A stretch of DNA of 12,542 nucleotides from Candidatus Woesearchaeota archaeon (GCA_964468425.1 CAYXSZ010000082.1:1-12542); one strand, 5' to 3'. Counted from the first letter of the stretch, positions 4,395 to 8,281 are shown. Notes: a model not told the origin generated them from the sequence alone. Made by a program: numbers and translations.

Positions 4395-4964
4395 TTATAT
4401 TTTAGGACTCAAATTCTTTTTTACTTTCTCGAAGGCATTTCGAGAGAAAGTTTCCTTATACTCTTTCATTAATTTCGTTAAATGTTCCCGATCTAGACTC
4501 AAAAGCTTTGAAACAGCTTTATCTCTTAACAAAAATTGCGCGAACTGCGTCAAATTTGATGGCTTTTTTGTTTCCTTCGCGCGTTCCCAATCCAATAAAA
4601 CAACTCTTCTTCCTGAAAGTATTACGTGCTTGTACGGTCTGTGCATCTCTTCTTTTTGAATTTTCATCGAGTCTAATAGAAAACAAATGTCCAAAACTTT
4701 GTTTATAGTATAAAGTAGTTCTTTTGTTTCTCCTTTTTTGATAATATCCTTTAAAGACTGTCCTTTTACGTATTTCATTTCTATTTCCAGATTTTTAGGA
4801 TCGAAGGAAATTAACTTAGGAACAAAAAGAAAATTTCTTAATTTTGATAAAAAGTGAACTTCCTTTTCGAAATTCTTACTTAGATTGGGTTTAAACTTCT
4901 TTAGGATTGTTCCTCTGCTTGTTAGAAAAACAAATGAATGTTTTCCTCTAGCGATTAGCTTCAT
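4395..4964 (-). CDS. small atypical protein-kinase-like protein (Bud32/RIO superfamily-like, possibly COG2112-type)
   Basis: 189 aa with a kinase-fold order of elements. These are an N-terminal loop LIARGKHSFVF, a lysine segment ILKKFK, a helix E..FLSKL, a hinge-like EMKYVKGQSL, a catalytic-loop position EEMHRPYKHVIL, and LLDWERA in place of DFG. The canonical HxDLxxxN is absent. The stop abuts the Hef ATG with 0 nt spacing (TAA|ATG). Confidence 0.5.
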   Translation of the reverse strand: MKLIARGKHSFVFLTSRGTILKKFKPNLSKNFEKEVHFLSKLRNFLFVPKLISFDPKNLEIEMKYVKGQSLKDIIKKGETKELLYTINKVLDICFLLDSMKIQKEEMHRPYKHVILSGRRVVLLDWERAKETKKPSNLTQFAQFLLRDKAVSKLLSLDREHLTKLMKEYKETFSRNAFEKVKKNLSPKI

Positions 4965-5613
4965 TTATAGGGCAAACGGCGTAGCACCTTTCTTTTTCAC
5001 AGATCGAAATGATATAGTCTATTGCATATCGGTTCCCGAGTATTTTCCCATCCGGAAGTACGCAAAAGCTATATATTCCGTTAATATAGATTGGTTTTCC
5101 TTTTTCTTGCTTACAAAGATTTTCTTCGAAATTTTTTCCCATAAAATATCCATTTTTATCTTGTATAGACGCGGGATATCCTTCCATGACATATGTCTTA
5201 TTTTTAGTGAATGCCACAACAAGGGGAACACCAAAATCCCACGAAATGTTGTGCTTCCTTAAACAAGACATCATGTTTACGGAGTCCATAGTTTTTACAA
5301 TTTTAACAGGAGTGTTTACTGTTTCAAGATAGGATAAAAGATGGTGGCAGTGAGGACACGTTGGAGAGTAAACTACGTAAATAACTGAAGCGTTTGCGTA
5401 AGACTTATTAGTGGTTGTGGATTCGTTGTAACCAATGTGACTTTGAGAGGAAATGTGGATTCCGGTCAAATTATTATTTGCATTTTGTAGAGCGCTCGCT
5501 GAAATAACGCCAGAACTTGGTAAGTTCGTTTTTTTGGAGCTGCTCGTCACATTAAGCGCAATTGGAAGAGCAAGGAATGCTAGGAGTATGGCTCCGATAA
5601 TTTCTCGCTTCAT
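4948..5613 (-). CDS. secreted or membrane-anchored thioredoxin-fold thiol:disulfide oxidoreductase (CPHC active site) with a Cys-rich C-terminal extension
   Basis: It has an N-terminal hydrophobic signal/anchor (IIGAILLAFLALPIAL) and an S/T/N-rich linker. The Trx-fold core has SPTCPHCHH and a downstream GVPLVV (cis-Pro loop position). The C-terminal ~80 aa carry 5 further Cys. The ATG overlaps the CcdA stop (ATGA). Confidence 0.7.
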   Translation of the reverse strand: MKREIIGAILLAFLALPIALNVTSSSKKTNLPSSGVISASALQNANNNLTGIHISSQSHIGYNESTTTNKSYANASVIYVVYSPTCPHCHHLLSYLETVNTPVKIVKTMDSVNMMSCLRKHNISWDFGVPLVVAFTKNKTYVMEGYPASIQDKNGYFMGKNFEENLCKQEKGKPIYINGIYSFCVLPDGKILGNRYAIDYIISICEKERCYAVCPINEANR

Positions 5614-6269
5614 ACCATAAAGAAAACAGAAAGCAATAATAACCCTGCGATTAGGTGTAGTTCTTTAATATGCTTCTCTCTCCACTCCATTATCTTCTCT
5701 GGTTTGGTTCCGAAGTAGACTAAGAGCGTGATTATAATCATTGGTAAGACGAACCAAATATTGTAATAAAGAATCCAAAGCAATCCTATCGCAAATGGAA
5801 GCTTCTTTATCAATCCAAGCATGATTACATAAGGACCAGATGAACAAGGAAGTAATAAGATAGAACAAAGCACAGCAGCTGGCAGGGCTACTAGTGGATT
5901 GTCCACGGAAGACAAAACCTTTTGAGCGATTGGTCTTAGCTTCATTGGCATTTCTATAGAAACCATTCCCGGTTTATACCTAAAGTAAGCCAGAATTTCC
6001 AGCCCGGCTAGTATTAGTAGTAATCCCTTCAAAATTATTCTGAGTATAGAGTCTATTCCCAACATATAAAGGATTTGGAGAATTCCGAGTCCGTAGAGAG
6101 TGTACATCAAATAAATGGTTGCTGAGAAAATGAGACCTCCGATCAGAACGGATTGTCGTCCCTTGGTAGCGAGCAAACTAGCTAGTAGCAAAACTTGCAC
6201 AGCAAGGGTACACGGATTAATAGAATCTACGAGAGCCAGCGAGGTTACATAGTATACATCCAGAGTCAT
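5610..6269 (-). CDS. ccdA: CcdA/DsbD-family transmembrane thiol-disulfide electron transporter
   Basis: 219 aa, a polytopic hydrophobic protein. It has the two family-typical membrane-embedded cysteines in Pro-Cys context: DSINPCTL (TM1) and LLLPCSSGPY (mid-protein). It is immediately upstream of, and overlapping, an exported CxxC protein. Confidence 0.75.
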   Translation of the reverse strand: MTLDVYYVTSLALVDSINPCTLAVQVLLLASLLATKGRQSVLIGGLIFSATIYLMYTLYGLGILQILYMLGIDSILRIILKGLLLILAGLEILAYFRYKPGMVSIEMPMKLRPIAQKVLSSVDNPLVALPAAVLCSILLLPCSSGPYVIMLGLIKKLPFAIGLLWILYYNIWFVLPMIIITLLVYFGTKPEKIMEWREKHIKELHLIAGLLLLSVFFMV

Positions 6270-6327: not shown

Positions 6328-7371
6328 CTACGTTTTCCGTATTTTTGCTACATAAAAACCTTCCGAATCGTTGTCCCATGGCCAAATTCGAAGCGTCTTT
6401 TTGATGTCGTCGTAAAACTTCTCCTTGTTCCACTCTACAAAAGGTTCTGAGCGATTTAGACCGGGGAGCTTCACTTTCTCAACTTTAGCGTTTTCTCTTT
6501 TTTCTAGTAGAAAGTTAACTACCGCTTCGTTTTCTTCGGGTTCGACGGAGCACGTGGAGTAAACTAACACTCCTCCCGGTTTAACGCTGTCAAAAGCGGA
6601 GAGAATTAAAGATTTTTGCAGTTTCGAGAGTCTTTTAATGGTTTTTGGATTCCATATTTCTAAGGTTTTGTAAGATTTACGAATAGCGCCCGTTCCCGAG
6701 CAAGGAGCGTCGAGTAAAACTCGATCGAAAGTATCTTTAAACTTTCCAAAGAACGTTCCATCGTGTTTAGTTACAATTGCGTTTATAACTCCCTGTCTCT
6801 GCAAGTTTTCCGCTAACGCCGAAATTCTTTGGAGATCGATGTCGTTAGCAATTACGCAACCTTTATTTTCCATGTGCATCGCGATTTGCGTCGTTTTTGA
6901 ACCGGGAGCGGCACACATATCTAGAATAAGCTCTCCCGGTTGAGGATCTAAAACTATGGGAGGAATCATCGAAGCAACTTCTTGCGAGTAGTAGTACCCA
7001 AGTTGAAACTCGATAGTATTTCCTATATCGCGCCTTTCAGGGTGTTCTAACCAGAATCCGTATTTGTAGAAAGGAACTCTTTTAATTCTCCACCCTTGGG
7101 CTTGTAAGCGATTTAACACATCCGAAGCGGTTACTTCCAATTCAAAAGGATACTGTTTTAATTTATAGCAGTTATCGACTTCTATCTCTTCCAAGTTGAG
7201 TTTTTTCAGACTTTCTGGAATATCGTCTTTAACTTTCAATGTATTTATACGAATAGATTTAGTTAGAGGTTTCAGCGACCACTCTATGAATTTTTCATAA
7301 TCGTCTCCAAGCATCTTTCGATAGTGGAGTTCAAAAGATCGCTTTATTTGTATTTCCACAGTTAGATTCAA
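6328..7371 (-). CDS. NOL1/NOP2/Sun-family RNA (cytosine-C5)-methyltransferase (tRNA/rRNA m5C)
   Basis: SAM motif I is DMCAAPGSKT. The two catalytic Cys motifs are DAPCSGTG and YSTCSVEPEENE. The N-terminal region contains RINTLK. The track start at 7371 is TTG. GTG at 7357-7359 (codon 5) or ATG at codon 20 are alternatives, and promoter geometry favours the GTG (see findings). Confidence 0.85.
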   Translation of the reverse strand: MNLTVEIQIKRSFELHYRKMLGDDYEKFIEWSLKPLTKSIRINTLKVKDDIPESLKKLNLEEIEVDNCYKLKQYPFELEVTASDVLNRLQAQGWRIKRVPFYKYGFWLEHPERRDIGNTIEFQLGYYYSQEVASMIPPIVLDPQPGELILDMCAAPGSKTTQIAMHMENKGCVIANDIDLQRISALAENLQRQGVINAIVTKHDGTFFGKFKDTFDRVLLDAPCSGTGAIRKSYKTLEIWNPKTIKRLSKLQKSLILSAFDSVKPGGVLVYSTCSVEPEENEAVVNFLLEKRENAKVEKVKLPGLNRSEPFVEWNKEKFYDDIKKTLRIWPWDNDSEGFYVAKIRKT

Positions 7372-7380
7372 AAGGGAAAA

Positions 7381-7392
7381 CTAAAAATTAAG
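7381..7392. promoter_or_regulatory. A/T-rich TATA-like element, possibly serving both the sRNA (+) and the methyltransferase (-)
   Basis: CTAAAAATTAAG is centred near 7387. That is about 26 nt from 7413 (just 5' of the perfect C box at 7415) and about 27 nt from the GTG at 7359 on the other strand. Confidence 0.35.
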
Positions 7393-7437
7393 ATGATGAG
7401 GCTCGTTACGGCAGATGATGAGGTTACCCATCACAGA
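7391..7437 (+). repeat. 22-nt tandem duplication of the C-box/guide/D' module
   Basis: AGATGATGAGG occurs at 7391-7401 and again at 7413-7423. In each copy, 10 diverged nt (CTCGTTACGG versus TTACCCATCA) follow the shared GG, completing the two 12-nt guides, and CAGA comes next (7412-7415 and 7434-7437). Confidence 0.6.
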
Positions 7438-7464
7438 AAATGAAGAGTGCCGAGTTCCCTGATT
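7413..7464 (+). ncRNA. C/D box sRNA (2'-O-methylation guide), canonical archaeal architecture
   Basis: C box ATGATGA (7415-7421), 12-nt guide GGTTACCCATCA (7422-7433), D' CAGA (7434-7437), AAA spacer, C' TGAAGA (7441-7446), 12-nt guide GTGCCGAGTTCC (7447-7458), D box CTGA (7459-7462). The 12-nt guides and the 3-nt D'-C' spacer fit the archaeal norm. It lies in a 91-nt intergenic gap and ends at the uS11 stop codon. Confidence 0.7.
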
Positions 7465-7870
7465 AGACTCTTCTTCCTCTCTTTCCTCCCTTTCTTCTAC
7501 AACCGTCGTGAGGAACGGGTGTTACGTCCTCGATTACTCCAACTTTTAAACCAGAAGTGATAAGAGTCTTTATCGCAAATTGGGCTGAGGGAGTAACTAC
7601 CCAAGGACCATTGTGTCCTCCAGGAGCCCTAACTCGTATGTGTACTGCGTTTATTCCCCTTTCTAATGCCTTTTGAGCTGCAAGCTTGGCTGCGAGAATA
7701 GCTGCTGTAGGAGTTCCCTCTAATCTATCCGCAGAAACAACCATCCCGCCAGATCCTACTGCAATGGTTTCGGAACCCGTTATATCTGTAATATGAACGA
7801 TCGTGTTGTTCTTTGAGGAGTAAATCCAAGCTATCCCCCAGCGAAGTTTTTCCTTCTTCTCCTCAGCCAT
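7463..7870 (-). CDS. rps11: 30S ribosomal protein uS11 (S11)
   Basis: 135 aa. [30 protein letters not shown], and a basic C-terminal tail [12 protein letters not shown] are typical of archaeal S11. ATG start. Confidence 0.95.
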
Positions 7871-7887
7871 TTATCTTTATTTCAGGT

Positions 7888-7900
7888 ACATTTTTAAGCC
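7888..7900. promoter_or_regulatory. single A/T-rich TATA-like element midway in the 48-bp uS11/eL31 divergent gap
   Basis: ACATTTTTAAGCC. The core TTTTTAA (7891-7897, centre 7894) is 24 nt from the uS11 ATG (7870) and 25 nt from the eL31 ATG (7919). Neither side has an SD. Confidence 0.35.
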
Positions 7901-7918
7901 TTAACTACTCACACTTAA

Positions 7919-8281
7919 ATGGAAGAAGCTAAGCAAGAAACCCAAGTTCAAGAATCTAAGGCTCAATCAGAAACTACTCAAGAAGCTAAAGATAAAGAAA
8001 TAAGAGCAGATGCACAGGAAACCAAGAAACTACCCGAAACCAAGGTTCTCACGCTGAACTTGAGAAGGTATATTCTCAACGCTTCAAGATTTAAAAGGGC
8101 TAAGAAAGCCATAAAGTCACTTAAACAATTAGTTCTTAGACACTCCAAAGCAAAAGAAGTTAAAATCTCTGCTAGATTGAATCAATACATTTGGGCTCGA
8201 GGGATCAAGAAGCCTCCTGCAAAAGTAACTGTCAAAATTATTAAAAAAGAGGATACTGCTTATGTCGACCTAGCTAGCTAG
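7919..8281 (+). CDS. rpl31e: 50S ribosomal protein eL31 (L31e) with an N-terminal low-complexity extension
   Basis: The C-terminal ~80 aa (VLTLNLRR...RFKRAKKAIKSLKQLVLRH...EVKISARLNQYIWARGIKKPPAKVTVKI) match the L31e pattern. The first ~40 aa are E/Q/T/K-rich, and there is no alternative ATG in frame. Confidence 0.85.
   Translation: MEEAKQETQVQESKAQSETTQEAKDKEIRADAQETKKLPETKVLTLNLRRYILNASRFKRAKKAIKSLKQLVLRHSKAKEVKISARLNQYIWARGIKKPPAKVTVKIIKKEDTAYVDLAS

Follow-up and report, generated by a model that had tools for sequence, protein, structure and literature searches.

Archaeal box C/D small ribonucleoproteins (sRNPs) are regarded as strictly bipartite, with a Nop5 dimer and 12-nucleotide (nt) spacers fixing two guides per RNA. 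The locus described here lies in a 12,542-nt stretch of DNA, hereafter the window, filed as Candidatus Woesearchaeota archaeon (GCA_964468425.1, CAYXSZ010000082.1:1-12542), whose source organism is a marine hydrothermal-vent member of Nanoarchaeota. The plus strand at 7393-7462 reads C-12 nt-D', C-12 nt-D', AAA, C'-12 nt-D, with a divergent methyltransferase gene of the RsmB/NOL1 type on one side and, on the other, the stop codon of the convergent gene for ribosomal protein uS11. We judge it moderately probable that this is the gene of a three-guide box C/D small RNA (sRNA), in which two tandem C-guide-D' modules share a single C'-guide-D half by way of alternative folds. A selected three-guide RNA with an overlapping D'/C junction would challenge the strictly bipartite picture of the sRNP, and a literature search, itself limited, found no three-guide archaeal C/D sRNA.

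The closest described RNAs are the 26 dual-guide sRNAs of Nanoarchaeum equitans (Randau 2012, PMC3491384), with which the locus shares its box consensus, 12-nt spacers, D'-C' linker of 3-4 nt, lack of a terminal stem, AT-rich leader and position next to an RNA methyltransferase gene. Unlike these, a single unit here holds three guides and three C-type boxes, box D'1 overlaps box C2 by one base, and the RNA would measure ~70 nt as opposed to 52-61 nt. Permuted and circular sRNAs have also been described (Randau 2012, PMC3491384). Guide modules are swapped between related sRNAs in Pyrobaculum, which has composite and transposed C/D sRNAs (Lui et al. 2018, PMC6009581), and the two-guide orthologues of the present locus likewise combine a common D guide with different D' guides. 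The Pyrobaculum RNAs are two-guide RNAs, whereas here both alternative D' modules stand in tandem in one gene, an arrangement that is apparently ancestral and conserved.

More distant comparisons can be drawn as well. Clustered and dicistronic sRNA genes, and fusions of a tRNA with an sRNA (Tripp et al. 2017, as summarized in PMC7994747), also place more than one guide unit in a transcription unit; the units there are complete, lie side by side and are separated by processing, whereas here module 1 comprises box C and box D' only, lacks a separate C'/D half and runs by one base, at the D'1/C2 junction, into the C box that follows. No Rfam family matched the window at its gathering score. A permissive search returned weak alignments of the boxes, at 7410-7465 or 7411-7465 and at 7389-7439, to the Pyrococcus families snoPyro_CD (RF00095), sR1 (RF01152) and sR35 (RF01123), the best scores being 19.1 bits (snoPyro_CD) and 16.7 bits (sR1), each against a gathering score of 45. 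All scores lie at 15-19 bits, where the gathering scores are 45-60, and the window does not belong to these families. The TIGR arrays of TIGR-Tas (Faure et al. 2025, PMC12045711) resemble the locus in their tandem spacers flanked by boxes C and D and in their binding by a dimer of Nop-domain proteins. The resemblance is formal only. Membership would call for an adjacent Tas gene and a regular multi-unit array, and we find no Nop-domain or Tas gene among the 10 open reading frames (ORFs) of the window scanned with Pfam and three units rather than a long regular array, with an RNA target and methylation as the predicted action.

The intergenic regions of relatives, recovered via the contigs of methyltransferase homologues found by protein search, supply the orthologous locus in four further lineages (L036, L030/L031, L023-25 and L034/35), or five with the window. 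All of these sRNAs are antisense to the methyltransferase gene, with the first C box 27-33 nt from the methyltransferase start in 5/5 lineages. The window itself reads ATGATGA-GGCTCGTTACGG-CAGA|TGATGA-GGTTACCCATCA-CAGA-AAA-TGAAGA-GTGCCGAGTTCC-CTGA, and L036 also has three modules: GTGATGA-GGCTCGTTACGG-CAGA|TGATGA-TGTTACCCATCT-CGGA-AAAA-TGAAGA-GTGCCGAGTTGA-CTGA. The remaining three lineages have two guides, each being without exactly one front module. One keeps guides 1 and 3 (L030/L031, ATGATGA-AGCTCGTTACGA-CGGA-TCGTAAGGA-TGAAGA-ATGCCGAGTTAA-CTGA) and two keep guides 2 and 3 (L023-25, ATGATGA-TGTTACCCATCT-CTGA-TTAA-TGAAGA-ATGCCGAGTTAG-CTGA; L034/35, ATGATGA-AGTTACCCATCT-CGGA-TTAA-TGAAGA-GTGCCGAGTTAG-CTGA). 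Guide 1 is thus the regular D' guide of one two-guide orthologue, and guide 2 that of two others. The spacers are exactly 12 nt throughout, all three in the window and L036 and both in the two-guide relatives.

Read 5' to 3' on the plus strand, the putative sRNA opens with box C1 (ATGATGA, 7393-7399), which is GTGATGA at the same place in L036. Guide 1 (7400-7411) is conserved at 12/12 positions in L036 and at 10/12 in L030/L031. Box D'1 (CAGA, 7412-7415) has its last A (7415) in common with box C2 (ATGATGA, 7415-7421; TGATGA at 7416-7421), which serves as box C when the locus is read as a canonical two-guide sRNA, and this junction, GGCAGATGATGA, is identical in L036. Guide 2 (7422-7433) has a core, GTTACCCATC, that is invariant in L036, L023-25 and L034/35; box D'2 (CAGA, 7434-7437) is CGGA or CTGA in relatives, and the AAA linker (7438-7440), the predicted loop of the internal kink-loop (K-loop), is replaced there by AAAA, TTAA or TCGTAAGGA. 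Box C' (TGAAGA, 7441-7446) and box D (CTGA, 7459-7462) are invariant in 5/5 lineages, as is the core TGCCGAGTT of the D guide, guide 3 (7447-7458), that lies between them. The layout that an earlier reading, made from this stretch of DNA by itself and here called the sequence-only reading, had given for 7391-7464 on the plus strand is confirmed exactly, and the comparison with relatives that it proposed finds boxes C' and D conserved and both two- and three-module loci.

By every sequence criterion tested, the locus is well supported as an archaeal box C/D methylation-guide sRNA gene. Boxes C (RUGAUGA) and D (CUGA) are present as ATGATGA at 7393 and 7415 and CTGA at 7459; an internal D'/C' pair whose short linker could form a K-loop is present as CAGA-AAA-TGAAGA at 7434-7446, for which relatives have C[T/G]GA, a linker of 4-9 nt and TGAAGA; and the guide cores GCTCGTTACG, GTTACCCATC and TGCCGAGTT do not vary among the lineages that have them, in contrast to the drifting flanks and linkers. 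A standard member of the class has exactly one C/D and one C'/D' pair, and hence two guides. Because of the additional C-guide-D' module at 7393-7415, conserved in L036, the predicted sRNA is filed as a variant that departs from this defining architecture. The unit RTGATGA-N12-CWGA occurs twice, back to back, at the locus and nowhere else in the window, against 0.02 expected per shuffled window (0/200 shuffles reached two matches), and the regular expression for a canonical two-guide sRNA likewise has its one window match at this site. The possibility that the motifs are a chance cluster in AT-rich intergenic DNA, which the lack of an Rfam family at gathering score might favor, is accordingly negligible, and is effectively refuted by the comparative data, in which four other lineages with saturated neutral sites have orthologues that preserve the boxes.

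Two other arrangements of the same motifs were rejected: an sRNA on the minus strand, where the boxes are poor, and a core sRNA made of C1-guide 1-D'1/C2-guide 2-D'2, because its zero-length D'-C' linker cannot form a K-loop. Single-strand folding predicted no more structure than in shuffled sequences, a usual outcome for nanoarchaeal sRNAs. Guide 1 and guide 3 are partly complementary (7400-7413 against 7447-7456), through GGCUCG/CGAGUU and CGGCA/UGCCG, and these pairings are used in the predicted folds of both the window and the L036 RNA. In L030 (1005-1030, minus strand), a relative with guides 1 and 3, a perfect 6-base-pair hairpin, TTACGA-CGGA-TCGTAA, is made up of the guide's 3' half together with D' and the linker. 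This hairpin would sequester D' and part of the guide, and it also appears in the predicted minimum-free-energy fold.

The evidence that carries the three-guide reading is the conservation of module 1. Between these lineages the methyltransferase is 71-74% identical to that of the window in amino acids, and its four-fold degenerate sites are only 31-42% identical, that is, saturated; for the window and L036 the value is 42%. Module 1 of L036 is nevertheless identical to that of the window at 21/22 positions, the junction CAGATGATGA included, the sole difference being the R of C1. At p = 0.42 per site, such identity has a probability of ~2e-7 by our own calculation. Where the five sRNAs differ, they do so at a guide's terminal base (first or last), at the R of box C, at the second D' position or in the linker, a pattern that fits a working C/D guide RNA and not promoter-spacer DNA. 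These comparisons show strong purifying selection on the boxes and on the cores of all three guides.

The same comparisons bear on how the arrangement arose. The sequence-only reading had offered, as one possibility, a recent module duplication whose spacer had diverged. This is refuted, because module 1 is 21/22 identical in a genome saturated at neutral sites and because guide 1 is a regular D' guide elsewhere, in L030. The proposal went with a 22-nt tandem repeat. The box units do lie back to back and an 11-nt repeat (AGATGATGAGG) recurs at 7391 and 7413, but guides 1 and 2 match at only 4/12 positions where 3 would be expected by chance, and what repeats is thus essentially box C, GG and CAGA. 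Guide 1 is not a diverged copy of guide 2.

In the methyltransferase tree, P0007 (three modules), P0004 (guides 1 and 3) and P0003/P0005 (guides 2 and 3) form one clade, with ~80-82% mutual identity, and the window falls with P0002 in the sister clade, the window and L036 lying across the deepest split among sRNA-carrying lineages. Since three modules occur on both sides of this split, the three-module state is by parsimony probably ancestral, and was probably followed by two independent losses of exactly one 22-nt module. In keeping with this, L030 retained a D' of the form CGGA, the D'2 form of relatives, which is the residue expected from a deletion of D'1, C2 and guide 2. What is seen would then be cassette-wise loss of modules rather than the recent birth of a guide.

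How might three guides be used within a bipartite particle? Because of the D'1/C2 overlap, D'1 cannot pair with C2 in a mutual K-loop, and two canonical folds, each of which excludes the other, are therefore proposed. The RNA would be made as a ~72-nt transcript on which, from structural reasoning, L7Ae, Nop5 and fibrillarin would assemble in one of these configurations or the other. In fold A, a kink-turn (K-turn) formed by C2 and D and a K-loop formed by D'2 and C' would make guides 2 and 3 active, with module 1 left as a 5' tail that is perhaps trimmed or bypassed by an internal start. In fold B, a C1/D K-turn and a D'1/C' K-loop would make guides 1 and 3 active, with C2-guide 2-D'2 (7416-7440) looped out. 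Both folds would keep the 12-nt spacing on both active guides. Fold A would be the architecture of L023-25 and L034/35, and fold B that of L030, where the loop would be reduced to 9 nt. Guide 3 would thus be constant in a bistable RNA, and guide 1 would alternate with guide 2.

The larger proposal, in which a bistable three-guide RNA has two overlapping C-guide-D' modules that vie for its one C'/D half, so that the gene gives rise to two alternative methylation RNPs, and in which 22-nt cassettes can be gained or lost, is put forward tentatively, as something closer to one candidate among several than to an expectation. If true, it would represent a minimal array-like stage of C/D RNA organization and a direct view of the remodeling of a guide repertoire. 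The locus offers a testable system for the choice of K-turn as a determinant of guide use, for which the natural two-guide descendants are ready controls, and cassette-wise gain and loss of guide modules would here be documented as a mechanism of guide turnover. Automated sRNA finders that assume two guides may, we suggest, miss extra ones.

Of the alternatives, that which survives best, while still unlikely, is that the three guides are all in use, whether together or once the RNA has been processed: a higher-order, di-sRNP-like particle would pair boxes between two copies of the RNA, or a cut at D'1/C2 would release a 23-nt C-guide-D mini-RNA alongside a normal sRNA. The conservation of both front modules together in two lineages, with an invariant junction, would suit such joint use, and tandem box-spacer-box arrays are processed to short guides in the related Nop-domain TIGR systems. 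Against this, no Nop-domain or Tas gene adjoins the locus; a C-12 nt-D hairpin would, from what is known of archaeal sRNP structure, be unable to hold a guide stretched between two K-motifs; and the clean loss of one module in each two-guide relative fits modules 1 and 2 being used alternatively, not jointly.

Several observations weigh against a three-guide RNA with alternative folds, the first of which concern its targets. Ribosomal RNA (rRNA) sites were matched on Escherichia coli 16S and 23S rRNA as a proxy for the host's, and the E. coli matches of all guides are no better than those of shuffled guides. Guide 2 reaches at most 9/12 there, with no convincing site. The two-fold model is a product of structural reasoning, and the tree is a simple neighbor-joining distance tree of one protein, the methyltransferase. 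RNA-seq detected 26 sRNAs in N. equitans, moreover, and none of them has three guides. The region upstream of the sRNA supplies the rest: window and L036 both have a promoter-like element placed where it would give a two-guide RNA, and the sequence 26 nt before C1 in the window, TTCAAA, is not a good TATA.

With this limit on significance, guide 3 matches E. coli 23S 1666-1677 at 10/12 positions (GGAACUAGGCAA), consistent with the site in domain IV of the large subunit (GGAACUCGGCA) to which the sequence-only reading had assigned it, and its target is probably this 23S stretch, with the N+5 rule pointing to the C of AAC in AACUCGGCA, the equivalent of C1670. That reading had also noted partial matches of guide 1, its "extra" guide, to small- and large-subunit rRNA. 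These extend to 10/12 at E. coli 16S 1097-1108 (CCGCAACGAGCG) and to 8 Watson-Crick and 2 G-U pairs at 23S 1914-1925, the 3' half of helix 69, and are insignificant on E. coli. The methylated nucleotide may be the A between GU and ACGAGC, which would be either E. coli A1918 on the 3' side of 23S helix 69 or a 16S position near 1101. We lean toward helix 69, where the fit would be full if the host's stem were GGCUCG/CGAGCC, that is, GGCUCG-UAACUGUAA-CGAGCC; the 16S alternative would be CCGUAACGAGCG. For guide 2, the predicted methylated nucleotide is the G between GAU and GGUAAC.

The predicted target strings are CGUAACGAGC (guide 1), GAUGGGUAAC and AACUCGGCA. Sites complementary to the guides were absent from ~60 nanoarchaeal tRNA genes, from the window and from the fetched loci, save on the antisense strands of the sRNA genes themselves, and the ~225 kb of fetched nanoarchaeal loci contained no rRNA genes. 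Scans of IMG/VR for archaeal 16S-type strings gave non-rRNA matches only. A metagenome scan for the targets of guides 3 and 1 at 5-35 nt from one another gave one chance match, on a bacterial coding contig (L028) that is not rRNA, where ~0.4 such matches are expected. A full-text literature search for the target strings returned no relevant paper.

Known nanoarchaeal guides do address the same regions. N. equitans sRNA21 is predicted to methylate the 23S stretch assigned to guide 3 (AAAUCmGGCAAAUUG, 23S-1790) through its D' guide, and the D guide of sRNA22 (GAGAGTTACAAA), which in its GTTAC and stem complement resembles guide 1, targets the 3' half of helix 69 (CUGUmAACUCUCUUA) (Randau 2012, PMC3491384). 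The methylated positions predicted for the window are offset by 1-2 nt from these, and N. equitans has no homologue of guide 2. In the supplements of Dennis 2015 and Randau 2012, no guide is homologous to guide 1 or guide 2, and analogues are all that these contain.

The upstream element is the basis of the second alternative, slightly less likely still, in which an ordinary two-guide sRNA (~7410-7465) is transcribed from the AT-rich box at 7381-7388 and module 1, lying between TATA and start, never enters the RNA. The whole AT-rich element (CTAAAAATTAAG, 7381-7392) is, from its sequence, a candidate TATA for the methyltransferase mRNA, for a short sRNA isoform starting at ~7408-7411, or for both, and a similar AAAACTAAAAT element is found in L036. 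The GAAAAC-TAAAAA at 7376-7387, which resembles a B recognition element followed by a TATA box, has its TAAAAA (7382-7387) 20-23 nt before G7410/G7411, fitting the -26 to -21 position of box A as read from the upstream sequences of N. equitans sRNAs, and a start at ~7408-7411 would yield a two-guide RNA alone. In L036, too, AAAAC-TAAAAT stands exactly 20 nt before AGATGATGA. The sub-threshold Rfam alignments begin at 7410-7411, and the 22-nt length of a module is close to a TATA-to-start distance.

An untranscribed spacer should, on the other hand, diverge like the four-fold sites (42%), yet module 1 is 21/22 identical in L036, and this conservation is the strongest argument for its being part of the RNA. 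In L030, guide 1 is flanked by C and D' at 12-nt spacing and must be transcribed if the sRNA is to have a C box at all. The AT-rich box also has another plausible role. It lies on the other strand 22-33 nt upstream of the methyltransferase start at 7359 and could serve the methyltransferase as the TATA box of an mRNA without a leader; the equivalent in L030, TAAAAATAAAA, sits directly before the sole C box, where a role as TATA of its own sRNA is impossible, and the distance from the first C box to the methyltransferase start is the same in two- and three-module loci. The three-guide RNA that the sequence-only reading had raised is thus favored by the conservation of module 1, while the AT-rich element leaves room for a short isoform, and the long and short forms may coexist.

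A third alternative, in which module 1 is transcribed as a 5' leader and removed, a decaying remnant that leaves guides 2 and 3 alone functional, is decidedly improbable. Most sRNAs of N. equitans do arise by processing of longer transcripts (Randau 2012, PMC3491384), and lineages with guides 2 and 3 alone do exist. A remnant would be expected to decay at guide 1, C1 and D'1, yet the R of C1 is the sole difference between the window and L036. We therefore return to the three-guide RNA as the preferred reading of the locus, within which the identification of a plus-strand archaeal C/D sRNA, as first made from the sequence, is well supported by the boxes, the 12-nt spacings and the orthologues in four other nanoarchaeal lineages.

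The genes on either side were identified with Pfam. The methyltransferase, of the RsmB/NOL1/NOP2 family of RNA 5-methylcytosine (m5C) methyltransferases (PF01189 and PF17125), occupies 6328-7359 on the minus strand, divergent from the sRNA, and is 59-63% identical to homologues from Nanopusillus, Nanobdella, Nanobsidianus, strain YN1 and N. equitans. Alignment with homologues places conserved N-terminal residues (..IK.SFE.HY..) upstream of ATG 7314, and the most likely start is GTG 7359 rather than ATG 7314 or TTG 7371; the intergenic gap is therefore 7360-7462. Metagenome gene calls put the start at ATG 7314, and the ORF list puts it at TTG 7371. A search for proteins identical to the 347-amino-acid methyltransferase ORF product returned no match.

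The uS11 gene (PF00411) runs from 7463 to 7870 on the minus strand, convergent with the sRNA, and its stop codon, TTA on the plus strand at 7463-7465, directly abuts box D. The same protein occurs on five hydrothermal-vent metagenome contigs, which carry an identical locus (by exact uS11 protein match) and are uninformative for comparison. Downstream of box D, a polypyrimidine tract on the plus strand (7466-7498), antisense to the Arg/Gly/Lys-rich C-terminus of uS11, is a possible terminator, as pyrimidine or T stretches are nanoarchaeal small-RNA terminators (Randau 2012, PMC3491384). In the region 7463-8281, uS11 stands by itself and divergent from L31e, as opposed to the usual S13-S4-S11-RpoD cluster, and does so in L001-L005 and L030 as well.

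Among the 10 ORFs scanned with Pfam, the window's gene neighbors are the RsmB-like methyltransferase, uS11, L31e, Hef and seryl-tRNA synthetase (SerRS), and none encodes fibrillarin or Nop56, both of which have been reported for N. equitans. The SerRS (543-2138) is unusually long at 531 amino acids, with a Seryl_tRNA_N domain and a class II core, and may be the rare methanogen-type enzyme. At 4395-6269 stand three successive minus-strand ORFs of 189, 221 and 219 amino acids; they have no Pfam match, and two related contigs, L002 and L003, conserve them.

Only in the lineages with guides 2 and 3 is uS11 separated from the sRNA by an inserted ORF, which is hydrophobic and small, at 55-58 amino acids (L023 9645-9821, L025 1781-1957, L034 1177-1344); in L024 its DNA is present and the gene is uncalled. 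Upstream of uS11 in these contigs is a 118-nt tRNA-Met (CAT) gene (L024 4544-4661, L023 8688-8805, L025 824-941, L034 208-325), detected by Rfam and missed by ARAGORN, whose intron of ~45 nt holds the C-box-like motifs GATGAGG and GATGATT and recalls the C/D-like tRNA-Met intron of N. equitans.

Beyond the five lineages, a scan of genome contigs carrying the methyltransferase found the loci of terrestrial Nanopusillus and Nanobdella and of N. equitans to be without this sRNA, and those of P0002, P0006, P0008, P0009, P0012 and P0013 have other upstream neighbors and no sRNA at this place. Most of the terrestrial Nanopusillus, Nanobdella and YN1 loci (L007-L017, L019, L020) have a different, sense-strand C/D sRNA directly upstream of the same methyltransferase (e.g., L009 2914-2962, plus strand), with a box D that overlaps the methyltransferase start codon (CTGATG). 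The D' guide of this sRNA, AGCATTACGCTT, is similar to that of N. equitans sRNA9 (target 23S-2028, just after helix 69), and its D guide is AT-only in several genomes (AAATATATTTTT). Finally, a two-guide C/D pattern, ATGATGA-GTATGGTTTT-CAGA-TCTT-TGATGA-TCATAAAATGG-CTGA, with spacers of 10 and 11 nt, lies inside a pyruvate:ferredoxin oxidoreductase gene in L032 (13191-13236, plus strand) and may be a chance match.

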